From Acidobacteria bacterium Mor1 (lineage in GTDB: Bacteria > Acidobacteriota > Polarisedimenticolia > Polarisedimenticolales > Polarisedimenticolaceae), in contig CP011806.1 of assembly GCA_001664505.1 (NCBI GenBank), positions 2,285,661 to 2,317,660 on the forward strand: a stretch of DNA of 32,000 bases, given 5' to 3'. Positions within the stretch are counted from its first letter, which is position 1. Each line of letters starts with the position of its first letter. The translations under genes were made by a program, and so were the position numbers. Positions 1,213-29,470 of this stretch are shown one piece after another. Below the pieces are notes generated by a model, which saw nothing but the letters and a program-made list of their open reading frames with translations, was not told the origin of the DNA and did no database searches.

Positions 1213-1496
1213 GTCAGAGAGAACGACACATCACGCCCATGGGTTCCCTAAATCAGAAACTCAAACCACGCTGCAAGGCTGAGCCAGGCTTTGCACAACT
1301 GCGCATTCAGCTAGCTCTGGACGCGCAACTCAGGTGCCCAAAACGCCATTCCCGGCTCGCGCACAAGGCCCACAAAGCGCACCGGCGACGTGCTTTGTAG
1401 GCCTCCCGTCTCCTGATAGCATAGACGGTAGAGTTTGCCCCTGAGTTCTCGAAGCTCGAACGCTCGAGTACCCTCTCTGCAAGCGCGAGGTTGAGA

Positions 1497-4400
1497 ATGA
1501 CTACCCCTGAGACTGGCCGAAGCGCCTCGAAACGGGACACTTGCCCGCACTGCGGCGTTCCCTTACCGCCACCTGGTACATGGTTTCCATTGTTGATTCT
1601 GGCGCCTTGGAACGTTGGCCAGATCCTCTCGCTGCTGTTGGGTGACACGCTGACCGCTCCGTGCGAGAACTGTGGAAAAAACCTTAAAACTCCAGCTGTT
1701 GCAGCCCTGCAACTCGAGAACCCATCTAGAGCCATCCTGGTTCCCACCGGCACGAGCACGGCGCTACCAACTGTGATGGAACAGGCGCTCCAGTCGCTTC
1801 GCAGCGAAGGTGAACAGGCGACTTCCCGTCCTGCCGTCGTGGTCGAAAACACCGAACACGCAACTCAGGAAATCCGCCAGCACGTCCTCTATTTCAAACC
1901 CGTCCTTCGGCAATTGTTCGAGGCCATTCGGGCAGATCGAACCGCGGAGTTCACGTCGCACCGATGGCGAGAACTCACGCCGTCTGCGTTCGCAGCAGCC
2001 CTCATTGCTTCCTCGGGCCTCGTGCGTGGAATCGGCGTGGACTCTTACTCACCAGACACCCACACCCGTGCTAGTTTCTGGGAAACCCACGAGGCAATTC
2101 GCCATCAGCTCGCACCAGTGCAACTCATGACGTGGGCCGCGCTTTCCTCCGAGCCCTGCACTCCTGACGAGACTTTGAGCGAGAGACTGTCAACCCACAT
2201 AAACCCCTTTCAGCTGCCAAGAGTCGTCGAACACATGGAATCTCTAGCCAAGAAATCCCTCGACTCGCCGGAGTTCTCATGGCTGCAGCGGTACGCGACC
2301 TTGGCGACAGCGGTCAGCTCCATTGCGAATGCAGGCAAAGAGACTGAACTCAGAGTGCCTTGGGCGCTTTACTTTCTGGAATTCGAGATCCTCCTACGTG
2401 ATCCGGATGCAGCTCCACTTCAACCTTTGCAACTATCGCCACACCAAGTCAACAGAACCATCGGAGACGTCGAACTCTGGAACGCGATTACGCACAAGAT
2501 CTCTACAGCGCTAGAGACGACCGACCGCGAATTGTCACCTAGCCCGGAAGAGCTCATCGCCTCGGTTCTCGAGGTCGGAACCCGCCTCTCGCGATCGCAG
2601 TTAGTTGAAGACACCCTCGCCAGTATCCGCGTTTCTTTCTCCGGAACGGCCACAGAGGACTTCGTGCTTGGATACACGACCAGACTCCTGAAGCCTCGGG
2701 TAGACCCAAGTGGTCTTGGCTCCATTCTCAAATGGCTATCTCATGCGGTGCTGGAACGTCGAGGCGCTGAACTGATTGAAAAGATCGCCGCCCGTGCCAT
2801 CGCACGGTACCCCGGGGACCGGCGATACGAAGCTACGGTTGATGCCTGGTACGGCGAGATGATGAAAGTCCTTAGACACCCGAGCGCATACCTCGAACGA
2901 GTCGGCTCGTTCCCCAGGCCATGGGAAGCCGCCTTGCCGTTCGCCTTACAGGTATCCCTGGAGAATGAACGCAGCAATTCGCTCCGGATTCTCGGAGAAA
3001 AAAAGGAGGCGCTCGAGCGCACGGAACAAATCATCGCTCGATTCGATAGCCAGGATAAATCACTTCTCGAGCAACTCGATGGAGATCGCCGTATCCTCGA
3101 ACGGAACCGCGCCATTCTGCTAAGGGAGACAGGAAGAGTCGACGCTGCCATCCCCCTGATGCTTGGACTTCTTGAGAGCGCACCGCTTCGCGAAAAACAC
3201 GACCTTCTCACGTCTCTCGGCGTCTCGTATGGAGAAGCAGGGCGTTTCGCAGAGGCTGCATCCTCTTTCAAGGAGGCGCTCGATGTCGCCCCGCAGGACC
3301 CGAGGCTCACACATAGGGCCAAACTCCATCTCGCCCAGGCCCTGATTGCAGACGGGCAGCATACCCTTGCAGCAACATTGATACTTGGCTCAGATCCAGG
3401 CGAGGTCCAAACTCCGGAAACCACCGTCATCGAGGCTGCGGTCTGGACAAACCTTCTGGTCACCAAGACCAGCCTGCCCGCTGAGGCGCAGGAACAAGCA
3501 AACCGGTCCCTTCGGGTGGCGCTGGACTTGGCGGAGTCACCTGAGATCAAGAAAGACTACGCGGCATATTTGGGGTTACTTGAGCTCGCGTTTACCATCA
3601 AGCTCTTGACGAAGGACCCGACTGCGGAAGAGAGCTTGCGGTTGCTACTGGCGCATTCTGGAGCGAAGCACCGCACCCCTGAACCAAAGTACCTAGCTGA
3701 CCTTGCTAGCATCCAGTACCGAAAAAAAGACCTTGAGCAAGCACGGGCAACGATGTCGCGAATACCGGGCGCCCTCGCATCGCATTTCGGCGAGATCCAG
3801 CGCACGGATATCGCCGCGGGCAGCACGACTCAACTCTCTTGGTCACTGGAGCATCTCGGAAGCGCAGTGACGGAAGACGAATGCAAGTGGCCGGATGTCC
3901 GCTGGGTAGCAGAGTTGTCGCGAGATGCCATAGGGCTTGCGAGAACACACCGTCAACCCAGAAAAGAAGCGACAGCTACGACAATCGAAGGCCCGATCCC
4001 CGACAGCGCTCTCGTGCCACTCGCTCCTGCTCACGGCACGCTTCTTGTCCTAGAGTGGATCCACACGTCTTCTGGCCTTCGTGCGATGTTGAGCAGTATT
4101 TCCCACGACGAGAACGTAGAGACCCAGCTACTCCCAGACCCAGGCGTAGACCTACTCAGCCTTCAACAGCGCATCCTATCCAGATTGAACTTCTGGTTCG
4201 GTAGTAGGCCTGGCGACCCGTTCGACATACCGGAGTGGCAGCGAATCCGCGATTGGCTATGCAAGGCAGCCTGTGCGTTCGAGCCCCCTATCCACTTGGT
4301 AGTCATCGAGCATCGAGTGGGCGTCGGTATTCCTTGGCACGTGGCGATCGCGGCTCACGGAACTTGCTCGTACGCTCCTAGCTGGAGGACTTTGCTGCAG

Positions 4401-5054
4401 ATACAGCAGAATGAGCGCACCGCCCCCGAATCACTGGGCACAATGAGCGTACCCCGTTTTGGAGAGTCTCGCCCTATCCGTGAGGCGCTCTCAAAATCCG
4501 CCACACGAACGAAGAAATGGGCTACCACGACTCGAATTGATCTAACTACGCACAACGATATCGAAGGCACCAAGGACTCATTCCGCGCGATAATGAGCGA
4601 AATGGACGTCGCAAAAGTTGCATGCCACGGGTACCTCGAGGAGGGAACTCTTGAGATCGCCCTCGCGCTTAGCAGCAAAGGAGCGCTACCGCCGCTTCGA
4701 GGCAGTATGACTTCATCTGATTTCAGATTAGATTGGAAGGACTGCCAAGGCCTGAGTCGCTCCTCGCCAGTGGTGTTCAGCTCCGCTTGCTCAAGCGGCA
4801 GGACTTGGAGGCGTGGCGCCGGAGAGCCGCTGGGTTTCTACGGAGCGCTTCGCCATAGCGGCACCGTTGCGCTTGTAGCACCGCGATGGGATACTGATGC
4901 CGAGGTAGTGATTCCTATCCTTGACGAGGCGTGCGAGCGATACTGCAGTGGGGAGCCTCTCGCCGACTCCGTTTGGCTCGCTTGCTCCGGAGCTGCTCAA
5001 GAACACGATGACTGGCGAGTCTGGCCGCTCGCGATACAAGGAGATTGGCGATGA
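1497..5054 (+). CDS. large CHAT-domain (caspase-fold) protease with N-terminal CxxC..CxxC zinc ribbon and central TPR-like helical repeats
   Basis: The track ORF starts at TTG 1491. I prefer ATG 1497, which is preceded by GAGG (1487..1490) with a 6-nt spacer. The C-terminal ~350 aa matches the CHAT pattern: VAKVACHGY (His codon 4626..4628), then SSPVVFSSACSSG (Cys codon 4788..4790), then GALRHSGTVALVAPRWDTDAEV. The N-terminus has CPHCG and CENCG (nt 1542..1673). The middle has TPR-like units, e.g. LGVSYGEAGRFAEAASSFKEALDVAP. No P-loop was seen. GC is visibly lower than in the flanks. Confidence 0.85.
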   Translation: MTTPETGRSASKRDTCPHCGVPLPPPGTWFPLLILAPWNVGQILSLLLGDTLTAPCENCGKNLKTPAVAALQLENPSRAILVPTGTSTALPTVMEQALQSLRSEGEQATSRPAVVVENTEHATQEIRQHVLYFKPVLRQLFEAIRADRTAEFTSHRWRELTPSAFAAALIASSGLVRGIGVDSYSPDTHTRASFWETHEAIRHQLAPVQLMTWAALSSEPCTPDETLSERLSTHINPFQLPRVVEHMESLAKKSLDSPEFSWLQRYATLATAVSSIANAGKETELRVPWALYFLEFEILLRDPDAAPLQPLQLSPHQVNRTIGDVELWNAITHKISTALETTDRELSPSPEELIASVLEVGTRLSRSQLVEDTLASIRVSFSGTATEDFVLGYTTRLLKPRVDPSGLGSILKWLSHAVLERRGAELIEKIAARAIARYPGDRRYEATVDAWYGEMMKVLRHPSAYLERVGSFPRPWEAALPFALQVSLENERSNSLRILGEKKEALERTEQIIARFDSQDKSLLEQLDGDRRILERNRAILLRETGRVDAAIPLMLGLLESAPLREKHDLLTSLGVSYGEAGRFAEAASSFKEALDVAPQDPRLTHRAKLHLAQALIADGQHTLAATLILGSDPGEVQTPETTVIEAAVWTNLLVTKTSLPAEAQEQANRSLRVALDLAESPEIKKDYAAYLGLLELAFTIKLLTKDPTAEESLRLLLAHSGAKHRTPEPKYLADLASIQYRKKDLEQARATMSRIPGALASHFGEIQRTDIAAGSTTQLSWSLEHLGSAVTEDECKWPDVRWVAELSRDAIGLARTHRQPRKEATATTIEGPIPDSALVPLAPAHGTLLVLEWIHTSSGLRAMLSSISHDENVETQLLPDPGVDLLSLQQRILSRLNFWFGSRPGDPFDIPEWQRIRDWLCKAACAFEPPIHLVVIEHRVGVGIPWHVAIAAHGTCSYAPSWRTLLQIQQNERTAPESLGTMSVPRFGESRPIREALSKSATRTKKWATTTRIDLTTHNDIEGTKDSFRAIMSEMDVAKVACHGYLEEGTLEIALALSSKGALPPLRGSMTSSDFRLDWKDCQGLSRSSPVVFSSACSSGRTWRRGAGEPLGFYGALRHSGTVALVAPRWDTDAEVVIPILDEACERYCSGEPLADSVWLACSGAAQEHDDWRVWPLAIQGDWR

Positions 5055-17544: not shown

Positions 17545-20500
17545 TCAGGGACAGACCGCGCCGTTATCCACTCGCGGCAGACCGCCGGAACTGAGTCCGT
17601 AGTCTCCGGCCCCGCTCTCACGAACCAGGATGTAGTCCACCTGCCCGGGGTCGGGTCGTAGCGAGTCGAACTGGATCGCGGCGGCGTTGCCCGCACACTG
17701 AACCGGAGTGGCCGCTCCCAGGTCGATCCGGGAGCCGGTCGATGCGACGTCGGCCAGATCTCCCCAGATCGCGTCGACCGGTCGAGCCAGGGTGGTGCCC
17801 GTGGGACAGGCGCTCGCCGGCTCGAAGTCGATGGAGGGATCGAGGCCGACCCCGGCGAGGGCCACCGTCACACAGACATCGGCGGCGCAAAACGCCTCCT
17901 GTCCGTCGGTGCGGCCGTCGCAGTCATCGTCAGCGCCGTTACGACAACGTTCGACGGCGCCGGGGAACACCAGCGGGTCTTCGTCGTCGCAGTCTCCCGC
18001 GCAGACCGCGACCAGGTCACCGTCCACGTCGAGTTCGTCGGCGGGAAGCTGGCTGTCACAGTCGTCGTCGAGTCCATTGCAGAGTTCGGCGGCGCCCGGG
18101 TTGCGGTTGCCGTCGTTGTCGTCGCAGTCGTTCTGGCACAGCGCGTAGCCGTCCCGGTCGACATCCGCCTCGGCGATCAGCAGCGATCCGTCGCAGTCCG
18201 AGTCGACACCGTCGCAGGTCTCCGGCGCACCGGGGAACGCCGTGGCCAAGAGCGGCGCGCAGTCGCAGGCGTCGCCGAAGCCATCGCCGTCGCTGTCCGC
18301 CCAACCCTGGCGCACGTCCCAGCTGCCGTCGCAAGCGGCGGTCGGTGGGCCGGCGATCTGCGGATCGCAAACGTCCCCGATACCGTCACCGTCCAGGTCG
18401 AGCTGATCGGCGTTGGCCTGGGCCGGGCAGTTGTCGCAGGCGTCTCCCCGGCCGTCTCCATCGGAGTCGTCGTCGCCACCGAAGGCGGGATCGACATCCG
18501 AGGCGACGAAGGGGCAGAGATCGAAGGGGTCGGCGAACCCGTCCCCGTCTCGATCGCCGGGCTGCATCAGGAACACGTGGACCGCACCGGCACCGCCGGC
18601 ATCTCCGGGAGCGGACGTCAACAAGTCGGCGACGCCGTTCCCGTCGACGTCGCCGCCGGCAAGGGCGGCTCCGACGCGATCTCCGGAAGCACCGAGCACC
18701 CGGGCCCGAGCCGCCGGTTCGAGCAGTTGGAGATCCAGCAGGGATCCACGGCCGACGACGTTCAGCCCGACCACCCGGCCGGCCTGGGAGGCAGGACCGC
18801 TGGCCGCGTCCGCAGCACCGGCGACCAGCTCGGCGAAGCCCTCGCCGTCGAAGTCGGCCAGCAGCAACGCCTGGCCGTAGCCTCCGGCAAAGCTGCCGAG
18901 CACCGTGTGATCGAGACTTCCGTCGGTCACGTCGGTGGTCGTTCCCGGCAGCAGCATGGCGGCGCCCCGATGCAGGTAGAGCTTGCCCTGCCCGCCTAGT
19001 GCACCGGGCGCCGATAGCGCCAGGTCCGCCTTGCCGTCATCGTCGGCGTCGGCCATCACAACCTGAGCCGCGAGCCCGTCGCCGGCGGCAGCACCGTAGA
19101 GGGCGGCCACCCGGGAGAGCCCCAGCGCCAGGTCGAGCGGATCGCCGCTGTCGACGGCTGAATCCGGCTGCAGGTAGAGGACACCCGCTCCCGCCCGGGA
19201 TACCGGACTGGCGTCGGGACCGCCGTAGGCCAGTTCGTCGAGGCCGTTGCCGTCGACATCCCCCATGGCGACCTGGGCCCCGAGGGCTCCCCCGGCGTCG
19301 GCGCCGAGGATGCGGGTGGTCACCGCCGCCGCCTCGAGCTGCAGCGGGAAGCTGTCGGTGAGCGGGACGAGATAGACCGCGCCCCGTCCGCTGGGCGGCA
19401 GCGCGCCGAAGCCGGGGGCACCGACCAGGACTTCGCCGAGATCGTCACCGTCCCAGCGCCCGAAGGCGATGGAACTTCCGAGATGATCTCCGGGGTTCTC
19501 TCCGTAGATCGTGACGTCGGCGTTCTGGGGGTCGATCGCCACCGCCCCCTCGCGCAGCGGTCCGAGGAAACCGAACACCGCGCCCTCCTCGGCACCGGCG
19601 GCCCGGGACCAGCGAGGACAACCGACGAACAGATCGGTCTGCCCGTCCTCGTCGATGTCCCCGACGGCCAACGCCTCGCCACACCCGGCCGCCGACAGGT
19701 CCGAGAGGATCGACTCCGCCGGCTCGGCGGACAGATCCCGCTGGGCGGGGGCGCTGAGTGACGACAGATCTACCACGTGGACCCCGGCGTCCGGCGATGG
19801 AGCAGGCACCGTCAGCACCAGATCGATCCGGCTGTCGCCGATCAGGTCCCCGGCGGCCAACGCCGGAGCGATGGCCGCGGAGCTGCCGGGGCCCAGGATC
19901 GTCAGGTCGGCGCTCTCGCTTGCGAGATCGCTGTGGCGTTGCCGGGTACAGGCACTGGAGCAACCGTCGCCGTCGACGGCGTTGCCGTCGTCGCAGGGTT
20001 CGCCCGGCTCGGGAACGCCGTTGCCGCAGAGCGCTGGGTCGCACAGGTCGCCGGCACCGTCGCCGTCGGCATCGAGCTGGCCCGCATTGGCCACGTAGAG
20101 ACAGTTGTCGCTCACGTCGGCGATACCGTCCCCGTCCCGGTCGAGGGAGTAGATCTCGGTCTTGGCCGTTTCGGTATTGCCGTCGCTGTCGACGGCGTAG
20201 AAGCGAAGGGTGGTGTCTCCGTTGAGCACCAGGTCGGCGACCCCCGTGGGGAAGTACAGCACACCCGGCTCACCGGGCACCGGATCGAGGGCGCCGAAGC
20301 GCACGTAGAGATCCGCCGGTTCGTCGCTGCGCAGCTGCACGGCGATGCCGTCCTGCTGATACAGCCCGCCGGGAGGTGTCGCCTGGGTCGTGGGAGCGTC
20401 ACCGTCGGCTACCAGGTAGTCCCCCACCTGTCCGGAGATCGCCGCCAGCGCCGCCGGATCGCACGCGGCGGTGACGATGTCATCGACCAGGTCATCCATG

Positions 20501-22914
20501 CGGGCGGTCAGGTTCTGGATCTCACCGGGCAGCGAGGCAGCGGCGATCAGGGCATCGCCGATCACCGATGCGCCGCAGGTCACCTGGGAGGCCCGGGTGT
20601 TCTTGGAAGCGACCGGCACCAGTGGATCGATCTGCCCGCCCTCGAGTTCGAAGGCCTGAAGCACCGCCTCGGCCAGTGCCGTACCGGCGGTCTCGATGTG
20701 CCCCAGGTCGACACTGTTGCCCTGGGCGGCGTCGACCACCGCGGCGACCACGTCGGGCCGCATGCTGAGAGCCTCGGCGTACTTGCCGAACACTCCCGCC
20801 TCGGCGTCCTCTTCGCTCTGGCTGTCGTCGAGTTGTTGCGCGCCACGCACCGCACCGGCCACCGCGCCGGATTGATCGAGAACGAGAGCGGACACCTCCG
20901 CCACCGCCAACGCGTCGTAGCCCTGTTCGTCCATGCCGGTCTGCACCGCCGGAGGCAGCGCTCCGCTGCGCAGGTGCTCGGTCAGCACCGCCTCGCTGCG
21001 CAGACCCGGATCGGCGAGAGCCTCGAGCACGGTAAACAGCGCGTCGGCGAACGGTGCGTAGCCGTCAAAAGCGGTCAGCCCGCTATCTCCGGCGGCGTGT
21101 TCCACCAGATAGGCGTGGAGGCCCAGGTCCATCTGAGGCAACCCGTCTTCCAGTTCGCTGGAGCTACATCCCTGGCCGATGCGGCCCAGCTCGCCGGCGC
21201 ACTGCCCGGCGAGGAACCCCAGTTCCACCAGGCGCTGCTCCAGCTCGTGGCCGCTGAGGGCGGCCCGGGCGCTGGCACCCGGATCGAGAGGGAGATCGAC
21301 GATGGCGGTATCGGCAGCGAAGGCCGCCTGAGCCGCGGCGAGCCACGCCGCGCCGTCCTGCCAACCGGCCGCCGGCTCGGCGGACGCGATCTGGAACCGG
21401 GGCACCAGACGCTGAAACACGTTGGAACCGGCAATGGCGCCGACCGTCTGCTCCTCACCGCGGGTGGAGAACAGGTTGAAGAACGACCCGCCTCCGTCGG
21501 TGAACACCTGGGGCCCACGGCGGAGTTCGGCACCCCGCAGATCGATGGCCGTGACCTCGACACCCACCTGGGGCAGCCCGCCGAGCACCGTGCGGCCGGA
21601 CAGGCGCAGCGCACCCGCCGGGTTCGTCGGCGAGGCATTGCCGCATCCGGCGCCGCCGCAGTCGGCATCGGTGGTGCAGGCACCGCCGAACGCCGTGCCG
21701 CCGCAGGTCAGGCTGCAGCCGGAGCCACCGCAATCATCCTCGCTCTGACAGACGAACCCGGCGCTGCCGCCGCCGATGCAGTAGCGATTGGTGAACAGAT
21801 CGGTCCCCTGAAGCAACTCCCGCAGATCGTCAATGCCGTCACCGTCGGAATCGTTGGCCGGCAGCAGCGGATCGAACCCGGGGCGGGCCCGCAGAGACTC
21901 GTCGACCTCGTAGAGGTCGGGAATCCCGTCGAAATCGGTGTCGACCCCGAGCGGCTGGTTCACCGCGAAGGCCGCGATGCGCGTCGGCCCCTGCTCCAGG
22001 GTGTCGGTGCGTTGGGCGAAGAAGCGGATCTCGGTGTTCTTGTAGACGTAGAGCGGGCGCATGTACGGATGCGCCTGGACGTAGGTCCCCGCCTGCCCCG
22101 GCACCGGGTCGGTGCCGTCGACGGTGTAGTAGATCGAGAGACAGCGGGGCTGCCCGGCCTCGACGCAGGGATCGGGACGGGTCGGGAGCAGCATCACCGG
22201 GAAGGTGTTGCCCACGTTGCCGCTCGGCGGCGAGGCGTAGGCGTCGATGGCGTTGACGTCGCCGGGGTCAGCCTGGTCTCCCACCGGCAGCAGCGACCAT
22301 GAGTCGCGCATGCGATTGACCACGATCCGGTCGGCCCCGTGAATGCCGTCGAGGTCGGCGAACAGCTCGTCGTCGATCAACGGCGTGATCCCCCCTCCCA
22401 GCGGCGGTGCCGCCACGAAGGTGCCGTTGCCGACCCCCTCGAAGAAGTACTCCGTCGCGCCGGCGAGCCCGGCTCCGGGATCCAGGGCCAGGTGCAGCAC
22501 CACGTCGATGCCGCTGCCCAGGTTGGAGGCGAACTCCCCGCTGCGCAGGCCGATCACCAGCTCCCCCGGGTTGCCCACCGGCGTGCTGAAGCCTGCATTG
22601 AAGTTCCCGCTGCCGTCTCCGAGCAGAATGCCCAGGGTCGGCTGGGAAACACCGAAACGATCGAGTTCGTCGTAGGCCAGGATCAGATCGAGATCGCCAT
22701 CCCCCTCGACGTCACCGACGGTGACGCCGTGGGCCAGATCGCCCACGGCCCAGCGGACCGGGGTGCGAAGACTGCCGTCGAGATTCCGCAGTTCGATCTC
22801 GACGGTGCCGTGGAAGGACTGGGCGCACAGGGGCGCGGCGGCGGCGCACAGGCCGATTGCCAGCGCCATGCAGATGAGTATTCGGATACAGCGGTTCATT
22901 CCAGGCGTCCTCAT
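17545..22914 (-). CDS. giant secreted mosaic protein: FG-GAP/VCBS repeats, thrombospondin type-3-like Ca-binding repeats, Myxococcus-type Cys-rich repeat, MopE-like 'putative metal-binding' repeats
   Basis: The start is revised to ATG 22914 (ATGA overlap with the upstream stop). ATG 22899 is an alternative. The signal peptide is MRTPGMNRCIRILICMALAIGLCAAAAPLCAQS. FG-GAP/VCBS units include GDVEGDGDLDLI, GDIDEDGQTDLFVGCP, GDVDGNGLDELAYGGP, ADADDDGKADLALSAPG and GDVDGNGVADLLTSAPG. TSP3-like units are DRDGDGIADVSDNCLYVANAGQLDADGDGAGDLCDP and DSDGDGRGDACDNCPAQANADQLDLDGDGIGDVCDP. The Cys-rich repeat is CGNGVPEPGEPCDDGNAVDGDGCSSAC. MopE-like units are DSDGDGFGDACDC..., DVDRDGYALCQNDCDDND... and DVDGDLVAVCAGDCDDEDP.... 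Confidence 0.85.
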   Translation of the reverse strand: MRTPGMNRCIRILICMALAIGLCAAAAPLCAQSFHGTVEIELRNLDGSLRTPVRWAVGDLAHGVTVGDVEGDGDLDLILAYDELDRFGVSQPTLGILLGDGSGNFNAGFSTPVGNPGELVIGLRSGEFASNLGSGIDVVLHLALDPGAGLAGATEYFFEGVGNGTFVAAPPLGGGITPLIDDELFADLDGIHGADRIVVNRMRDSWSLLPVGDQADPGDVNAIDAYASPPSGNVGNTFPVMLLPTRPDPCVEAGQPRCLSIYYTVDGTDPVPGQAGTYVQAHPYMRPLYVYKNTEIRFFAQRTDTLEQGPTRIAAFAVNQPLGVDTDFDGIPDLYEVDESLRARPGFDPLLPANDSDGDGIDDLRELLQGTDLFTNRYCIGGGSAGFVCQSEDDCGGSGCSLTCGGTAFGGACTTDADCGGAGCGNASPTNPAGALRLSGRTVLGGLPQVGVEVTAIDLRGAELRRGPQVFTDGGGSFFNLFSTRGEEQTVGAIAGSNVFQRLVPRFQIASAEPAAGWQDGAAWLAAAQAAFAADTAIVDLPLDPGASARAALSGHELEQRLVELGFLAGQCAGELGRIGQGCSSSELEDGLPQMDLGLHAYLVEHAAGDSGLTAFDGYAPFADALFTVLEALADPGLRSEAVLTEHLRSGALPPAVQTGMDEQGYDALAVAEVSALVLDQSGAVAGAVRGAQQLDDSQSEEDAEAGVFGKYAEALSMRPDVVAAVVDAAQGNSVDLGHIETAGTALAEAVLQAFELEGGQIDPLVPVASKNTRASQVTCGASVIGDALIAAASLPGEIQNLTARMDDLVDDIVTAACDPAALAAISGQVGDYLVADGDAPTTQATPPGGLYQQDGIAVQLRSDEPADLYVRFGALDPVPGEPGVLYFPTGVADLVLNGDTTLRFYAVDSDGNTETAKTEIYSLDRDGDGIADVSDNCLYVANAGQLDADGDGAGDLCDPALCGNGVPEPGEPCDDGNAVDGDGCSSACTRQRHSDLASESADLTILGPGSSAAIAPALAAGDLIGDSRIDLVLTVPAPSPDAGVHVVDLSSLSAPAQRDLSAEPAESILSDLSAAGCGEALAVGDIDEDGQTDLFVGCPRWSRAAGAEEGAVFGFLGPLREGAVAIDPQNADVTIYGENPGDHLGSSIAFGRWDGDDLGEVLVGAPGFGALPPSGRGAVYLVPLTDSFPLQLEAAAVTTRILGADAGGALGAQVAMGDVDGNGLDELAYGGPDASPVSRAGAGVLYLQPDSAVDSGDPLDLALGLSRVAALYGAAAGDGLAAQVVMADADDDGKADLALSAPGALGGQGKLYLHRGAAMLLPGTTTDVTDGSLDHTVLGSFAGGYGQALLLADFDGEGFAELVAGAADAASGPASQAGRVVGLNVVGRGSLLDLQLLEPAARARVLGASGDRVGAALAGGDVDGNGVADLLTSAPGDAGGAGAVHVFLMQPGDRDGDGFADPFDLCPFVASDVDPAFGGDDDSDGDGRGDACDNCPAQANADQLDLDGDGIGDVCDPQIAGPPTAACDGSWDVRQGWADSDGDGFGDACDCAPLLATAFPGAPETCDGVDSDCDGSLLIAEADVDRDGYALCQNDCDDNDGNRNPGAAELCNGLDDDCDSQLPADELDVDGDLVAVCAGDCDDEDPLVFPGAVERCRNGADDDCDGRTDGQEAFCAADVCVTVALAGVGLDPSIDFEPASACPTGTTLARPVDAIWGDLADVASTGSRIDLGAATPVQCAGNAAAIQFDSLRPDPGQVDYILVRESGAGDYGLSSGGLPRVDNGAVCP

Positions 22915-25667
22915 GGCTGGGGTCCGGAGCAGGTGGGACCCGCAGGGAGGTGGCAAGTCGTGTCGGGGCCGTACTGGAAGCTGAACTCGCCGTTCAGGTC
23001 GTAGCGAACGACGGTGTACGTGTACCAGGTGTCCGGCTCCGTATCGAGGTCGGTCCAGGTGACCGAGGTATCGAAGGTGGTCTGGCAGGTGATCATCGGC
23101 GAGACCTGTTGCCAGAATCGGGATCCTTCGCGGCGGCGGAAGACGATGAATGGCGCGTCGTTGCCTGCGCTGCATCCGGCGGGGTCGGCGGACCAGAACA
23201 CCTCGATGCCGCCGGCGGGGGCCGGGGTCAACAGCAGGCTCGCGTTGACCACGTCGAACTGCCGCGGGTTCTGCCGCTGCCAGTAGGGCCAACTCAGCTC
23301 CAGATCGCCGATTCCGAAACCGTCCCAGGCGTAGGGCTTGACCTTGCCGGGCACCCCACCCCAACCGATGGCGTGCAGATGCAGCACCACGTTGTTCGAT
23401 TCCCCGACCTTGACCTTCATCGTGTAGAGCGAGGTCGCCGGGTCGTAGGTCAGGAAACGGCCGCTGGCCGGCTCGACGTTGGTGATCGTATTCTCGAGCG
23501 CCTGGGCACCCGGCTTGACCACCCAGGAATCGGTATTGGTTCCGGGCTGGCTTCCGAAGTTCTGCTGGCCGAAGTGATCGACGTAGCCCGGCGGGATGTT
23601 CGGATCCGGATCTTCGCCGTCGACCAGATAGCTGGTCCAGAGCGAGAAGCCCAACAGCGCCTTCGGGCTCAGCGAATAGAACTGGATGCGGATCCAGTCC
23701 TCGCCGTCGCCGTCGTCCTGCAGGTCGAGTAGCACCTTCTTGATCGTCGGCGCCGGCAGCGGCACGTTCAGCTTGAACAGGAACGACGCGGGATCCGAGA
23801 AGGCGCCGAAGTTCCCGCTGGGGTCGATGGTGCGCACCTTGTACCAGATCTTCGAATCGATCATCGGCTCGAAATCCGGCGACCAGGGTGAGGTCGTGAC
23901 CTCGGGCCCGGGCACGTACTTGACTCCGTCGAAGGAGCGGTAGACCCGAACGCCCCAGGCGTCATTCGGCTTCTGGATCTCGATCTGGGGCGGACAGTCG
24001 GGCCCCGTCAGGATCGTCAGGTCCCCCTCTTCCTGCTGCCAGCGCTCGTCGAAGGTCGTGTCCCGGCAAACGTCTCCCGGGTTCTCCTCGCAGCAGCGAA
24101 GAGTCAGGGTTGCCCGCCCCGGCGCCACCAGGTCCCGGGGCACGCACGGCACGAATCCGCTCAGAGGGCTCGGATTGCCTGCCGCGTCCAGGGCCCGGGC
24201 CGCGTAGAAGAAGGTGGTGCCGGCGTCGCCGGCCTGGACCGAGGTATCGACGAAGGTGGCTCGACTGCCCGGTGCCACGCTGGACTGGAGCAACGTGCCG
24301 GCCCGCCAGGAGGGAGGCAAACGGTCGAGGTTCAGATCCCTGGGCACTCCGAGCACACGGTAGATCTCGTAGCTCTCGGTGCCGTCGACCGATTCGTCGT
24401 TGCGCTCCCAGGAGATCTCGCAGACCTCGTGGCCCTGGTCGAGGACCCGCGTACTCTGAATCAGCGCCGGTTGCTCCGGCGCGTCCCGGTCCAGCACCTC
24501 GCAGGGCACCGGCGTCGTCGGCGTGCCCAGGTCGCCGAACAGATTGCGCGGCAACATCTGGTAGCAGTAGCTCTGACGCAGCTGCACCGGATCGAGGGGG
24601 GTGTCGCTGCCGTCGTCCCGGAAGTTGAACGCCTGGACGTACTCGAACACGGCGTCGAGTTCATCGGGGGTCATGCTGTTGAGCGCCGGGATGTCGTGGG
24701 GGGTCGCCGGGTCGGCGGCGTCGCCGATCTGCCGCCGGTAGAAATCACGCAGGGTGCTACCGGCGACCTGGGCGTCATCTCTCCCGCCGGGATGGCAGGA
24801 CTGGCACTGGGCCGCAAACAGGCTGGCGCCCTGCTTCTGCCGTCCCGGCTTGGGAGGCAACACCGTCACCGAGCTTGCCCGCACCACGTCGGGCGCGCCG
24901 GGCGCCATCGGCGGGCAGCTCCCGTCGGGATTGGCCTGGGTGCGCAGCACCTCGTAGCCGAACCCGCGCCACTCGTCAGGCGAGGAATCCCAGCGCAGGA
25001 AGGCCGCCTGGTGCCCCCGGGCGTCGCCGGGGTCGATGCAGGTCGGGTTCTGTGCGCCGGCGTGGGGTTCGTAGGTTCCCGCCGTCGCCGAGGCGCGGCC
25101 CAGCCGTTCCGCCGGCGCTCCGACGCCGTCGAGGCCCCACAGTTCGTACACGTAGGTCGTGCCGGGGGTCACGTTCTCGTCGAGATAGCCGAGGCCCAGG
25201 GCTACTGCCGCCATGTAGTTCTGCTCGGGCAGGTAGCGCAGCTGGGCGCGGCTGATCTCGGGAGCGTTGGGGTCCTGGATCAGCAGGAGCTCGACGGCAT
25301 ATTCGCTACCGAAGCTCTCCTGGATCCACTGCAGGGCATCTTCGTTTCCGACGGTGGTGAACAGGTCCTGGATTTCCTGGACTTCGGTCATCGGCTCGAT
25401 CGGATCGAGGTTCTGCAGGGTGAAGTCGGCGGTTCCCGCCTCGCGACGCATCACGTCGAAGGCGGAGTAGCGCTGGATGCCCTCGACGGCGCGCCAGCGC
25501 AGCAGGATTCGGGGAGCACTGTCGTCGGCCACGGCGACGACCTCGAGGCGTTCGGCCGGGGGTGCGGCCTGGAGCGGCCCGGTGAGGAGGGCGGCCAGGA
25601 CGCAGAGCGCGAGTGCGAACACCCGGGCACACGCGTGTCCTTGGGTCACGTCTATTCCTTGTCTCAT
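22911..25667 (-). CDS. secreted multi-Fn3-like protein with embedded mono-haem c-type cytochrome module
   Basis: Start revised to ATG 25667, with GAGG 9 nt upstream, 11 nt after the upstream stop. The signal peptide is MRQGIDVTQGHACARVFALALCVLAALLTGPLQA. Fn3-like signatures include ILLRWRAVEGIQRYSAFDVMRRE, AFLRWDSSPDEWRGFGYEVLR, CEISWERNDESVDGTESYEIYRV, FFYAARALDAAGNPSPLS and WYKVRTIDPSGNFGAFSDP. The cytochrome c block is GASLFAAQCQSCHPGG...NSMTPDELDAVFEYVQAF, with CQSCH at 24806..24792. Confidence 0.8.
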   Translation of the reverse strand: MRQGIDVTQGHACARVFALALCVLAALLTGPLQAAPPAERLEVVAVADDSAPRILLRWRAVEGIQRYSAFDVMRREAGTADFTLQNLDPIEPMTEVQEIQDLFTTVGNEDALQWIQESFGSEYAVELLLIQDPNAPEISRAQLRYLPEQNYMAAVALGLGYLDENVTPGTTYVYELWGLDGVGAPAERLGRASATAGTYEPHAGAQNPTCIDPGDARGHQAAFLRWDSSPDEWRGFGYEVLRTQANPDGSCPPMAPGAPDVVRASSVTVLPPKPGRQKQGASLFAAQCQSCHPGGRDDAQVAGSTLRDFYRRQIGDAADPATPHDIPALNSMTPDELDAVFEYVQAFNFRDDGSDTPLDPVQLRQSYCYQMLPRNLFGDLGTPTTPVPCEVLDRDAPEQPALIQSTRVLDQGHEVCEISWERNDESVDGTESYEIYRVLGVPRDLNLDRLPPSWRAGTLLQSSVAPGSRATFVDTSVQAGDAGTTFFYAARALDAAGNPSPLSGFVPCVPRDLVAPGRATLTLRCCEENPGDVCRDTTFDERWQQEEGDLTILTGPDCPPQIEIQKPNDAWGVRVYRSFDGVKYVPGPEVTTSPWSPDFEPMIDSKIWYKVRTIDPSGNFGAFSDPASFLFKLNVPLPAPTIKKVLLDLQDDGDGEDWIRIQFYSLSPKALLGFSLWTSYLVDGEDPDPNIPPGYVDHFGQQNFGSQPGTNTDSWVVKPGAQALENTITNVEPASGRFLTYDPATSLYTMKVKVGESNNVVLHLHAIGWGGVPGKVKPYAWDGFGIGDLELSWPYWQRQNPRQFDVVNASLLLTPAPAGGIEVFWSADPAGCSAGNDAPFIVFRRREGSRFWQQVSPMITCQTTFDTSVTWTDLDTEPDTWYTYTVVRYDLNGEFSFQYGPDTTCHLPAGPTCSGPQP

Positions 25668-25678
25668 GGATCGATTCC

Positions 25679-28600
25679 TCAGAGAGAGCATTTGACCTTG
25701 GGGCCGGACATCTTGATCTTGAACTTGGGCGGGGTCTTGCCGGTGACGTTGCCGCGCACCACGCAGGACGCGCACCAACCGTCGTTGAGCACGTCCGAGG
25801 GCGAATCCCATTCGTCCTCTTCGCAGAAGCCGAAGCCTCCGCCGACCCACATGTCGCCGGCGAGCTTGAACACGTCGCCGTCGGTGTTGCCCAGCAGGGT
25901 CAGATCGCCGCGAACCGAGACGAGACAGGCGCCCTTGCCGGATACCCAGCCGCGCACCTTGCCGCCGAAGTTGTCGGAGATGTACCAACCGCCGACTTCC
26001 ATCCCGGCGCTGACGCGCAGCAGGCAGCCGAAGTCGAAGATGTTGCCCTGGACTCCCAGACGGGCGTAGCCCCCCTGGAAGGAGTTGAGGTTGTTGAGGA
26101 ACTTGCCGACGGTGGGATCCAGCGACTTGAGCGGCTCCATCGTCTTGCAGTTGCCCAGCAGGATGTCCCCGTGGGCGCCGTAGCCGTTGAACTTGAGCTT
26201 CAGGCCGGCATCGAAGTACCAGTCCCCGTCGGACCAGTACTTGAGGGTCATTCCGGCCTTGTCGAAGCCGATGCCCGACAGGCCTCCCTTGGTCAGGTCC
26301 AGCGAGCCGGTGAGGCTGTTGAAGGTGAAGCTCGGCGGGCTGCCGCTGACGTCGAAGTCGAAGTCCCACTGCATCCCGGGCACGCTGGGGAAGTCGATGC
26401 TCTGCTCGGCCGGCATGGACATCGCGCCTGCGATCTGACGCCGGCTGAACTCCTGGATCGGCTGCAGCGCACCGTTGCTGGTTTCCTTGACGTGCCGGTC
26501 GATCGAGAGTGTCGAGCGGTCCAGCCCGAAGAACTGACCGCCGGTGTCGATGGTCGCGTCGAGGAACGCCAGATCCGCTCCGTCGGCAGACAGATCCAGG
26601 TGCCCGGTCATCTTCGACGCGTTCATCCCCGGAGCGGCCACGGCAAAGGAGGTCTGCAGGTCGGGATGATTGGCCAGGTCGGCCAGAGCCCCGCTGTCGT
26701 GAAGCGCCGTGGTCAGCGCCTGGGGTTCGGGCAACGCCCCTCCCAGCTTCGCCAGCGCGCCGTCATAGGCCCCGGCAAAGGGGTTGAGCAGTGAGGCCGG
26801 CACGATGGTGTCCAGGTCGCCCCGGGCGGCAGGCAGGATCGCGTCCCACAGACGCAGCACGCTGCCGGCACCCAGATCGGAGCGGGTCAGGCCGTGACGG
26901 GTCTGGATCCCCGAGGCGACCGGAACCGAGCCGAGCTGCACCGAGCGCTGGCCACCCCCCTGGTCGGCGTAGCCGAGGAACACGCCGACGCCGTTCTCGT
27001 TGTCGCCGTCACCCGGATCCTTGGTGCCTTCGGGGCGGAAGTAGTCCAGCCGGTACTGCAGGTCGATGGTGCCGCTGGCCATGGTCCGCGAGGCCAGGAT
27101 CGACGACTTGCTCGGAACGTCGGGGAAGCCCGGCTCGTGGACGTCGACCTGATAGGTCGCGGCAACCACGTCGGTGCGGCGAATGACGGTGTCCCCTTCG
27201 GTGGAGCCGAACCAGGGCACGTCGATCTCGCCGATGGCGTCGTAGCGGCCCAGCGGCTGAGTCGGCGGCGGAAAACCGTCGCAGTCGTAGACCTGGCACT
27301 CCGAGGGGAAGCCGGCCCAGGGTTGCAGCTCGAACTCGGAAACGTCGTAGGTGTAGGGCTGCAATCCCAGACTGTTGGGCTCGAACTCGAACTGGGTGAA
27401 ATCGATCGGTTTGATGGCGCCGGGGACCCCGTTGGGATCCAGCGAGAAGTCCGACGTCGGCGTCGGCTGGAAGTGCGGCACCGGCGTCGATGCGGTGACT
27501 TCGACGCTGGTCGCCTTGTCCCCGTTGCACTGGACGTCGGTGTCCCCCGGGACCGACGTGAAGGCCAGACCGTAAGGCAGATACTCGGCGTCCCAGTACT
27601 TGAGCTTGCCCGGCGCGATGCCGCTGGGTACGTCGGCGTCCTTGGGTTCGCCGCAGTTGCAGAGGCGCATGTCGCCGAAGGGGATCATCGTCGACGAGGG
27701 CCAGGGGAAGTTGATCGCGCCCCGCATGACCGTGTCGGCGTATTCGGAGCGATTGCCCTTGAACGCGTGGCCCCAGGAGTTGAAGTCCATCTTGAAGCCG
27801 TTGGGATCGTTCAGCGGAGTCGGGTCGATGCCGCCGTCGAACACCCCGGTCACCCCGGAGCCGCGCACGAAGAACACCAGCTCCTTCTCCAAATCGTCGG
27901 CGGGAATGCTCTTGATCACCGGCGGCAGTTCGTTGACCGATGCGGCCCAGTCGGGTGGCGTCGCCGCTCCCGGACAGACCGGAGACCAGATTCCCGCGTC
28001 GCAGGTGCCGCCCGGGCAGTCGCTGTCGTTGCTGCAGCGGTTGTTGGCGTTGGTTCCGCCGACGCACATCAGATTGCGGTTGTAGTTCAGCCCGGCATAG
28101 AGGCCGCGCCCCTCGGGAGCGAACCCACGGGCCAGCACCTGGACGTCCTGGGGGTTGCCCAGGCCACCCGGCAGGAAGGTGTCCGCCTGGAGCGGCGGAA
28201 TCCAGAGCGTGCCGCAACCGAGGTCGGTCAGGCTGTTGAAGGTAAAGGTGAACGGTTCCGGCCCGGTATCTCCGGGCTGCTGCTCGTTGAGATCTGCGAC
28301 CCCGGCGAGGATGCCGCCGTGCTGGGTGATCTGTGGGCCGAGCCGGTCATCGTTGAGGGTGAAGCGCCGGCTCTGGATCGCGTCGTCACAGATCTCCCGG
28401 GGCCCGTATTCGAGCCACATGGTGCCGCCGTCGAACCCGCCGTCGACGAAGGTGCCGTCGACCATCGTCGCGGCGGCCGGGCCGTCGAGCCGCACCCACA
28501 CCCCGTCGGGGAAGGCCGGTTCGAAGTCGACCTCGGCGGTCGAGGGAAGATCCAGCTCCAACTGGAATCCCAGGTGGGTGAACGAGACGTTGCGTGGCGC

Positions 28601-29470
28601 CCAGGAGGCGTGGTCCAGCCACCCGGCATTCCAGCGGGCGTTGCAGTTCCAGGTCAACCCGGGCTCGGGAATGCGGCAGCCGACCTCTCCGGCGGTCGCG
28701 CCGGATGCGGGGACGACCACCTCGTAGGCTGGCCCGATGCCGCCGATGGTGTCGAGACTCACCCGGTCCTGTTCGAAAGTCACGTCCCCCGGAGTCATGC
28801 GGAACGGCATGCCGTCGGGCCAGAAGCGGAACGACCCGTTGGTGTTGGTCTCCTGGAAGCGGAAGGTCAGATCCTGCTTCAGCCGCACCTCGTTGAAGTT
28901 GATCGTCTTGCCGCCGGTGGAACGCACGCTGTTCGGATAGACCAACGTGGCCTGGTTGCCGGTGGTGGCATCGGTGCGGGCGCCGTCGCTGCCCCGGAAC
29001 AGCACCTGGGGAATCACGTAGTTGAGGTTCCCCTCGGCGACGCACTCGGTGCGCAAATCGTGATTCTGGTTGGGGACGTAGGTCGTGGTGTCGTCGGCCG
29101 GCACGTAGGCCGGCTCGGGGCCGATGTTCGGGTCCTTCACCACATCGCCCAGGAAGAAGATGTTCATCCAGTCTTCCTGGGGAGCGCAGAGACCCAGATC
29201 CTCGTAGGGACCGAACTCGACGCTGATCTCACCGTCGAAGCTGAAGGTCCCGTCCCCGTTGTCGGTGCACAGATGGCACTCCTCCACCGTGGCCCGGATC
29301 TCGAACTCCGGGTCGCCGGCGGCAAACAGGAACACGTCGGATCTGAAGTCGCAGCGACTGACCGAACCCTCGACACAGGTCGAGGGCGCCGGCCCGGCCA
29401 GAGTCGCCGATGTGGCGGCCAGGGCCAGGACAATCGGAAGCCATCGCGATTTTCCGGTTCGCCTAAACAT
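25679..29470 (-). CDS. large secreted protein of unknown function (orphan, 1263 aa)
   Basis: Start revised to ATG 29470, with GAGG 6 nt upstream. The signal peptide is MFRRTGKSRWLPIVLALAATSATLAGP. The protein is Gly/Asp/Pro/Thr-rich with apparently beta-rich composition and scattered Cys pairs (e.g. NRCSNDSDCPGGTCDAG). I recognise no domain. The frame is coherent over 3.8 kb while the alternative frames are Arg/Gly-rich junk. Confidence 0.75.
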   Translation of the reverse strand: MFRRTGKSRWLPIVLALAATSATLAGPAPSTCVEGSVSRCDFRSDVFLFAAGDPEFEIRATVEECHLCTDNGDGTFSFDGEISVEFGPYEDLGLCAPQEDWMNIFFLGDVVKDPNIGPEPAYVPADDTTTYVPNQNHDLRTECVAEGNLNYVIPQVLFRGSDGARTDATTGNQATLVYPNSVRSTGGKTINFNEVRLKQDLTFRFQETNTNGSFRFWPDGMPFRMTPGDVTFEQDRVSLDTIGGIGPAYEVVVPASGATAGEVGCRIPEPGLTWNCNARWNAGWLDHASWAPRNVSFTHLGFQLELDLPSTAEVDFEPAFPDGVWVRLDGPAAATMVDGTFVDGGFDGGTMWLEYGPREICDDAIQSRRFTLNDDRLGPQITQHGGILAGVADLNEQQPGDTGPEPFTFTFNSLTDLGCGTLWIPPLQADTFLPGGLGNPQDVQVLARGFAPEGRGLYAGLNYNRNLMCVGGTNANNRCSNDSDCPGGTCDAGIWSPVCPGAATPPDWAASVNELPPVIKSIPADDLEKELVFFVRGSGVTGVFDGGIDPTPLNDPNGFKMDFNSWGHAFKGNRSEYADTVMRGAINFPWPSSTMIPFGDMRLCNCGEPKDADVPSGIAPGKLKYWDAEYLPYGLAFTSVPGDTDVQCNGDKATSVEVTASTPVPHFQPTPTSDFSLDPNGVPGAIKPIDFTQFEFEPNSLGLQPYTYDVSEFELQPWAGFPSECQVYDCDGFPPPTQPLGRYDAIGEIDVPWFGSTEGDTVIRRTDVVAATYQVDVHEPGFPDVPSKSSILASRTMASGTIDLQYRLDYFRPEGTKDPGDGDNENGVGVFLGYADQGGGQRSVQLGSVPVASGIQTRHGLTRSDLGAGSVLRLWDAILPAARGDLDTIVPASLLNPFAGAYDGALAKLGGALPEPQALTTALHDSGALADLANHPDLQTSFAVAAPGMNASKMTGHLDLSADGADLAFLDATIDTGGQFFGLDRSTLSIDRHVKETSNGALQPIQEFSRRQIAGAMSMPAEQSIDFPSVPGMQWDFDFDVSGSPPSFTFNSLTGSLDLTKGGLSGIGFDKAGMTLKYWSDGDWYFDAGLKLKFNGYGAHGDILLGNCKTMEPLKSLDPTVGKFLNNLNSFQGGYARLGVQGNIFDFGCLLRVSAGMEVGGWYISDNFGGKVRGWVSGKGACLVSVRGDLTLLGNTDGDVFKLAGDMWVGGGFGFCEEDEWDSPSDVLNDGWCASCVVRGNVTGKTPPKFKIKMSGPKVKCSL

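Follow-up and report, generated by a model that had tools for sequence, protein, structure and literature searches.

A class I-type cytochrome c module, probably with two histidine ligands, nested in an Fn3-like domain of a giant exported protein of Acidobacteria bacterium Mor1

We analyzed a stretch of 32,000 nucleotides from the genome of Acidobacteria bacterium Mor1 (GenBank contig CP011806.1, positions 2,285,661 to 2,317,660), called the window in the following. Three adjacent genes on its minus strand, named A, B and C here, encode giant exported proteins. The middle gene, B, codes for a protein of 918 amino acids (aa) with Fn3-like domains and a single cytochrome c module, and this module is the subject of the present analysis. 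The features needed first are the following, with coordinates referring to the window:

22911..25667, minus strand: gene B, a 918-aa exported protein, chain of Fn3-like beta-sandwich domains with a cytochrome c insert (translation, AlphaFold2, Foldseek, homologues)
24624..24857, minus strand: aa 271-348, class I-type cytochrome c module nested in Fn3-like domain 2 (Pfam, profile against the PDB, model, Foldseek, missing from haem-free paralogues)
24792..24806, minus strand: CQSCH haem-attachment motif, aa 288-292, with C288, C291 and the proximal ligand H292 (alignment of homologues)
24696..24698, minus strand: His324, probable distal (sixth) haem ligand (conservation and alignment)
24672..24674, minus strand: Met332 within NSM, probably not a ligand (alignment)

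Residues 275-347, approximately, are a genuine class I-type cytochrome c domain with one haem-attachment site, as a first-pass annotation had proposed. The Pfam family PF13442 (Cytochrome_CBB3) aligns to aa 277-344 over model positions 3-68 of 68, and the excised segment scores 32 bits against a cut-off of 27. PF00034 reaches 25.1 bits (cut-off 21.3). Full-length homologues of protein B (n=26) share 36-63% identity, and 16 of the 26 match PF13442 at E<=0.01. With phmmer, yeast iso-cytochromes c and cytochromes c6 were matched at E of about 1e-3, and a profile built from 14 family domains found the second domain of actinobacterial QcrC (2e-8) and cytochrome c6 (1.7e-6) in the PDB. The AlphaFold2 model of the excised domain, built without haem, shows four helices (predicted local distance difference test, pLDDT, 82.5). 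Comparing this model to the PDB with Foldseek gave 38 top matches that are all class I cytochromes (template modelling score, TM, 0.45-0.63; probability up to 0.99), among them c6, PgcA domains I and II, PsbV, the c domain of cd1 nitrite reductase and c546/556 (TM 0.63). PF14495 (cytochrome c550) scored 15.6 bits against a cut-off of 27 and covered only 20 residues around CxxCH, which does not assign the module to that family.

The CQSCH motif directly follows the helix 277-287 in sequence and model. Its position and the flanking sequence quoted by the first-pass annotation agree with the 918-aa translation. It had been described as the only CxxCH of the three giant proteins; this is correct, a search for CxxCH, CX3CH and CX4CH found CQSCH alone in these proteins, and a six-frame translation of the 32-kb window contains no further CxxCH. 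Given its content of 18 Cys and 10 His, protein B (918 aa) would be expected to have about 0.004 CxxCH by chance. C288, C291 and H292 as well as G280 and R296 are invariant across 26 of 26 aligned homologues. Homologues were also to be checked for retention of the motif: in the 38 family members covering the site both Cys and the His are kept, with regular or altered spacing, in 37, and each member has exactly one haem motif. CxxCH occurs in 32 members, CX3CH in 1, CX4CH in 3 and CX5CH in 1, while the second Cys and the His alone are left in 1. The spacing or single-Cys variants are P0009, P0020, P0026, P0028, P0042 and P0034, all six of which keep the distal His; P0034 has lost the first Cys, and its GLACH represents a single-Cys form. 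CX3CH and CX4CH are known haem-attachment substrates with regard to the specificity of the Ccm system. At the level of sequence, this pattern of retention is as expected from selection for haem attachment. An in-frame TGA in the orthologue G038 was considered and found not to be meaningful, as the tblastn alignment is uninterrupted and CxxCH and the His are kept.

The genome contains three PF01578 (CcmF/CcmC-type) genes, no ResB and six further PF13442 domains, therefore c-type cytochrome maturation is in place. Together with the signal-peptide-like N-terminus of protein B, these Ccm-type genes are consistent with the earlier proposal that export and haem attachment fit together.

The identity of the sixth ligand differs from what had been suggested. 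The first-pass annotation had assumed the canonical His/Met layout with the Met of NSM as candidate distal ligand. All 38 members carry His324. Apart from H292 and H324 no His of the whole 918-aa protein is invariant, and the family alignment shows no conserved Met in protein B. When aligned to QcrC and to the six other PF13442 domains of the same genome, the canonical Met-Pro falls on I326-P327, two residues past H324; the canonical Met position is occupied by I, V, L or T across the family, which thus has no distal Met-Pro. Since H324 is invariant, no Met is conserved and the canonical Met-Pro coincides with I326-P327, we read the haem as bis-His, with His324 most likely being the sixth ligand. 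Met332 is found in only 2 of the 38 members, the window protein (P0001) and its closest relative (P0004), and is replaced by L, I or V in 24 of 26 aligned homologues. In canonical cytochromes its counterpart is a hydrophobic residue immediately preceding the C-terminal helix, six residues past the canonical Met. The suggested check of homologues for a retained Met was therefore negative.

The following features describe the remainder of protein B:

25566..25667, minus strand: aa 1-34, predicted Sec signal peptide with a probable cleavage site behind LQA (read from the sequence)
25080..25556, minus strand: Fn3-like domain 1, aa 38-196 (secondary structure of the model)
25200-25382, minus strand: five helices inserted into Fn3 domain 1, aa 96-156, in the loop that corresponds to the one carrying the cytochrome in domain 2 (model)
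24858..25058, minus strand: Fn3-like domain 2, N-terminal half, aa 204-270, with FLRW and GYEVLR strand motifs (model strands 206-211, 222-227, 235-244 and 262-268)
24483..24623, minus strand: Fn3-like domain 2, C-terminal half, aa 349-395, with an FNFRDD strand and a YCY tyrosine-corner strand (model strands 349-351, 366-375 and 387-390)
22914..24482, minus strand: aa 396-918, remaining Fn3-like sandwich domains, which contain conserved Cys pairs (model, Foldseek, Pfam fn3 in P0013)

The AlphaFold2 model of the whole protein (mean pLDDT 84.4) is a chain of beta-sandwich domains. Foldseek returned tandem Fn3 arrays as top matches (E 3.5e-19 to 1e-7), and only generic arrays of this kind were obtained. 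A Pfam scan of the window protein gave no fn3 match; in the homologue P0013 Pfam fn3 is above the cut-off in the last domain (28.9 versus 25). Foldseek and the fn3 match in P0013 both indicate a repeated seven-stranded sandwich of Fn3 topology, and according to the model protein B is composed of about seven Fn3-like domains. The cytochrome helices 277-287, 306-314, 327-330 and 334-344 lie between the model strands 206-268 and 349-390 of one sandwich. Since they are located inside the strand order of this sandwich, the module is inserted after the fourth and before the fifth strand of Fn3 domain 2, in a loop and not between two domains. The Fn3-like nature of the flanks, noted in the first-pass annotation, is supported by the AlphaFold model and Foldseek, but the two sides are halves of a single domain and not two separate ones. 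The strand B Trp (W226), the strand C GY motif and the strand F Y-C-Y of the domain 2 sandwich are all conserved. In the homologue alignment W226, G237 and Y238 are conserved in the N-terminal half, and D351, C368, Y369 and C389 are invariant in the C-terminal half.

Fn3 domain 1 is the best-conserved part of protein B with 53-71% mean pairwise identity. Its five-helix insert shows 55% mean pairwise identity and many invariant residues, contains neither Cys nor His, and had no match in a Pfam search. We considered whether it represents a degenerate cytochrome and rejected this because Cys and His are absent and no profile matches. Invariant Cys residues in aa 396-918 are found at positions 416, 508, 525, 558 and 861, and the conserved Cys pairs of protein B suggest, as judged from the alignment, an oxidizing compartment. 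The signal-peptide region has a basic n-region, a hydrophobic stretch at aa 16-30 and small residues before AP, a pattern common to the consensus of the homologues; in the model it forms a helix at 15-27 with low pLDDT. Four secretin genes are present in the genome, and given these, secretion of protein B across the outer membrane is possible. Sequence searches of NCBIfam, PHROGs and the PDB with the non-haem parts of B returned nothing useful. PF25833, a precomputed label on two homologues, did not recur on rescanning with a Pfam library that does not include it.

We searched 1.84 billion representatives with the family profile and obtained 78 proteins at E<=1e-30. The second tier of this search comprises proteins of about 950-1070 aa that have the domain order in common with protein B. 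Haem-free paralogues carry a loop of 10-20 aa at the insertion site, bordered by the same flanking motifs (…N..P[VI]L… and …F.F.DD…). In a quick FastTree tree, calculated after removal of the insert columns and rooted at the midpoint, a clade with support 97 contains all 38 haem-type and 5 haem-free proteins, and 28 other haem-free proteins lie outside. The main haem-type clade comprises 36 proteins (support 100); the other two, P0042 and P0044 with a short insert, branch together with the 5 haem-free proteins. The distribution of the insert on the tree needs at least 2 changes, which suggests one gain within the B family and one loss. The direction of change is one that we infer, because the tree is a quick one with midpoint rooting. 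If the insert was gained once and probably lost once, the haem is an accessory and not the core of the system. The wider B family is accordingly best described as predicted haem-free, with the cytochrome insert as a lineage-specific add-on.

The two neighboring genes of B are:

25679..29470, minus strand: gene A, exported protein of about 1263 aa, directly upstream of B, no recognizable domain
17545..22914, minus strand: gene C, exported protein of 1789 aa, directly downstream of B, with FG-GAP, TSP3, CHB_HEX_C and three MopE-like (PF11617) repeats (Pfam and NCBIfam)

At all loci with enough flanking sequence B is located between A (about 1300-1370 aa, unannotated) and C (about 1790-1860 aa, FG-GAP/TSP3/CHB_HEX_C). 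Haem-free B paralogues are likewise preceded by an A homologue, and a shorter FG-GAP/TSP3 protein follows. Protein A had no match in Pfam, NCBIfam, PHROGs or the PDB. It is kept upstream of B in haem-containing and haem-free cassettes, its last ~200 aa being best conserved. This part (window 25679-26300, minus strand) is the only one that aligns with the A proteins of distant haem-free cassettes (35-44% identity), and it has no family or PDB match. Since nothing else of A still aligns to the distant proteins, the C-terminal ~200 aa appear to be a core under functional constraint, which might serve for anchoring or interaction.

The PF11617 repeats, three in number, are located near the C-terminus of protein C. 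They were detected in the C proteins of 10 of 10 haem-type cassettes versus 0 of 7 haem-free cassettes. For this comparison the C proteins of the window, L001, L002, L007, L011, L015-L017 and L028 were set against those of L022-L033; the short-insert branch (P0042) was left out, as its contigs end before the C-terminal region of the C protein. In the homologues of C at L007 (12660-18035, aa 1055-1092) and likewise at L011, the FG-GAP region gives a weak match to PF12256 (TcdB_toxin_midN; 25.7 bits, just above the cut-off), which most likely reflects common propeller-type repeats and not a relationship to toxins.

Gene B is single-copy in the complete 5.99-Mb genome. Its named relatives are mostly from metagenome-assembled genomes of Acidobacteriota. 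Sampling 300 other genomes of the phylum, we found gene B in 3, all of the same class and none from the family or order of the window genome. Such a rare and patchy distribution of the cassette may result from horizontal spread or frequent loss. The regulators flanking the cassette vary by locus and include extracytoplasmic function (ECF) sigma/anti-sigma pairs, Ser/Thr kinases, sigma-54 activators, Y_Y_Y histidine kinases and TPR-CHAT proteins. TPR-CHAT or TPR_12 proteins adjoin the cassette on both sides at L015 (2852-5902 and 18371-21127) and at L001 (1016-4267), and in the window a TPR/CHAT gene (1491-5054) lies about 12 kb from the cassette. This neighborhood may be a recurrent association or a coincidence.

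Taking these results together, we consider it probable that protein B carries a class I-type cytochrome c with a bis-His haem, nested in Fn3 domain 2, as an accessory redox module on the structural scaffold of the three-gene cassette. Protein B would be exported by Sec and receive one haem from the Ccm system, linked covalently to C288 and C291 and with H292 as proximal ligand. Binding of His324 as sixth ligand would result in a low-spin bis-His haem. The haem module could then act as a single-electron relay or as a reporter of the redox state within a periplasmic or surface-located assembly of A, B and C. Because of their co-occurrence with the insert, the Cys-rich (Cys/Asp-rich), putatively metal-binding MopE-like repeats of protein C would be the most plausible partner of the haem.

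Several points weigh against this reading or parts of it. Within the whole protein PF13442 scores 26 bits, just below the cut-off of 27. None of the Foldseek E-values for the model of the domain reaches significance, the best being 0.24, so that the fold evidence is supportive and not decisive. The assignment of H324 as a ligand is based on conservation and alignment. The electron-relay role and the MopE partnership are both functions that we infer. The co-occurrence of the insert with PF11617 is confounded by phylogeny, as essentially one clade is compared with others, and by the length of C, which is 400-900 aa shorter in haem-free cassettes; with largely separate clades and a shorter C it is a lead and not a test. 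The Pfam name 'Cu-binding_MopE' is no proof of copper binding by the repeats. Finally, one haem is not enough to conduct electrons over the length of a 900-aa protein, therefore electrons could only be passed on locally, to a small molecule or to a partner that is bound.

Instead of relaying electrons the haem could serve as a sensor or switch, in which a labile His324 is displaced by a redox change or by O2, NO, CO or H2S and the conformation of the Fn3 loop, the A-B-C assembly or adhesion is altered. The location of the module in the loop of a structural domain would suit this function, as would the lack of an obvious second redox centre in B and the many kinds of sensors and regulators flanking the cassettes. 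Bis-His c-type haems with an exchangeable distal ligand are also known, for example the cd1 nitrite reductase c domain found among the Foldseek matches. However, protein B is without a signalling output domain, the flanking regulators differ between loci and none is haem-linked, and ligand lability has no support in our analysis, so we regard a sensor as unlikely. We are equally doubtful about a more far-reaching interpretation, according to which A, B and C would form an undescribed envelope or surface assembly and the bis-His haem, acquired in one acidobacterial lineage, together with MopE-like repeats gained in C, would make up a redox-gated or metal-handling surface device with no characterized counterpart, for example for copper/iron capture or redox-controlled adhesion.

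A structural or vestigial haem, stabilizing the helical insert or a protein-protein interface without a redox role as discussed for PsbV (cytochrome c550), appears quite unlikely. PsbV-type bis-His cytochromes are among the structural matches, the insert was apparently lost once while the cassette was kept, and the loss of the first Cys in P0034 points in the same direction. The Cys/Cys/His/His set is nevertheless strictly kept at otherwise 36-63% identity, an observation that is also compatible with a structural role.

It is very unlikely that Met332 ligates the iron in this particular protein, making it a canonical His/Met electron carrier. The residue is present in the window protein and in P0004, and switching from His to Met ligation occurs in some class I domains, e.g. 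in cd1 nitrite reductase. Invariance of His324 argues against such a ligand, as does the restriction of Met to two members: with L, I or V elsewhere, the position six residues past the canonical Met looks like a structural hydrophobic site.

By analogy to methanotrophs, a catalytic haem could modify partners in a peroxidase- or oxidase-like manner, for example by cross-linking or by oxidation of Trp, Tyr or Cys in the MopE-like repeats of C, with which the insert co-occurs. The genes of MopE and CorA are transcribed together with those of c-type haem proteins thought to oxidize Trp to kynurenine (PMC3912023). Those haem proteins, SACCP and CorB, are however di-haem BCCP/MauG-like enzymes instead of single class I domains, a six-coordinate bis-His haem is hardly suited to catalysis as long as both ligands stay bound, and the PF11617 repeats are only a putative copper site; we consider catalysis highly improbable. 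Least credible is a loss of haem binding with reuse of the cytochrome-like fold as a plain helical insert, for which the borderline Pfam score in the whole-protein context and the variable Cys spacing could be cited, but which conflicts with the invariant C, C and H in all 26 aligned homologues, the motif kept in 37 of 38 members, the acceptance of CX3CH and CX4CH as attachment substrates and the presence of maturation genes.

We therefore return to the accessory bis-His redox module. The first-pass annotation had called a single cytochrome c module on a large surface scaffold an unusual context, which is overstated: such modules in large extracellular proteins are documented with X183 (PMC8981238, PMC10916295) and PgcA (PMC11520253), and since both are already known, the arrangement is not new in general. 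New here are the nesting of a cytochrome c module inside an Fn3 loop, the apparent replacement of Met by a His at position -2 in a domain of the PF13442 type, accompanied by natural CX3-5CH variants, and an uncharacterized three-gene cassette of giant exported proteins. In the literature we found no paper on the cassette or on a cytochrome c domain in Fn3 with bis-His ligation. No new principle is involved. The module provides a case of a whole cytochrome c fold inserted into the loop of an Fn3 domain and, as far as the alignments indicate, of a class I domain whose Met ligand has been swapped for a His two residues away. The natural CX3CH, CX4CH, CX5CH and single-Cys variants are material for studying haem attachment and the evolution of ligands. 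By its color, redox state and spectroscopy the haem also offers an experimental handle on an otherwise featureless conserved three-gene cassette, in a phylum, Acidobacteriota, with few characterized surface systems.

In comparison to class I cytochromes such as c6, the second domain of actinobacterial QcrC and the CcoP domains, the module has in common the N-terminal helix ending in CxxCH, the predicted all-helical fold of ~70 aa and the C-terminal amphipathic helix; profile matches span the whole module, and the top 38 fold matches, though not significant, are exclusively class I. Unlike canonical members it is without the Met-Pro ligand motif and has an invariant His two residues upstream, it is nested in a beta-sandwich loop instead of being free-standing, and some family members use CX3-5CH. 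PsbV (cytochrome c550) and PgcA domain III resemble the module, as it is read here, in being small helical domains with a single c-type haem and His/His ligation, although the PF14495 match of the module to the PsbV family remains below the cut-off. PgcA is extracellular and has three separate monohaem domains, two His/Met and one bis-His (PMC11520253). These are connected by flexible linkers and hand electrons on, whereas the module described here has one haem and no linker, and the PgcA domains matched by Foldseek (I and II) are the His/Met ones.

The X183 cytochrome c domains of Cellvibrio Cbp2D and Teredinibacter TERTU_2913 are located in large secreted multidomain proteins, with a proposed electron transfer to an extracellular partner (PMC8981238, PMC10916295). 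Like the module, they are small c-type cytochromes embedded in a large secreted protein with non-redox beta domains. They are His/Met (PMC10916295), joined by linkers and accompanied by carbohydrate-binding modules in Gammaproteobacteria, whereas the module is nested and has no conserved Met. The 60 best PDB matches of the family profile include no X183 domain, and the likeness is one of architecture only.

MopE and CorA are copper-binding surface proteins of methanotrophs co-transcribed with the c-type haem proteins SACCP and CorB (PMC3912023). Both there and in the cassette, a gene for an actual or predicted c-type haem protein is linked to one encoding a secreted or surface protein with a MopE-named motif. 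SACCP and CorB are di-haem peroxidase/MauG-like proteins, in contrast to the one class I haem domain of the cassette. Its MopE-like motif consists of three short Cys/Asp-rich repeats in an 1800-aa FG-GAP protein, for which copper binding and kynurenine formation are hypothetical. As a string of Fn3-like sandwiches protein B finally resembles the tandem Fn3 arrays of bacterial surface proteins, titin and cytokine receptors, but differs from them in that two of its domains each have a large helical insertion at the same loop, and one of these insertions is a cytochrome.

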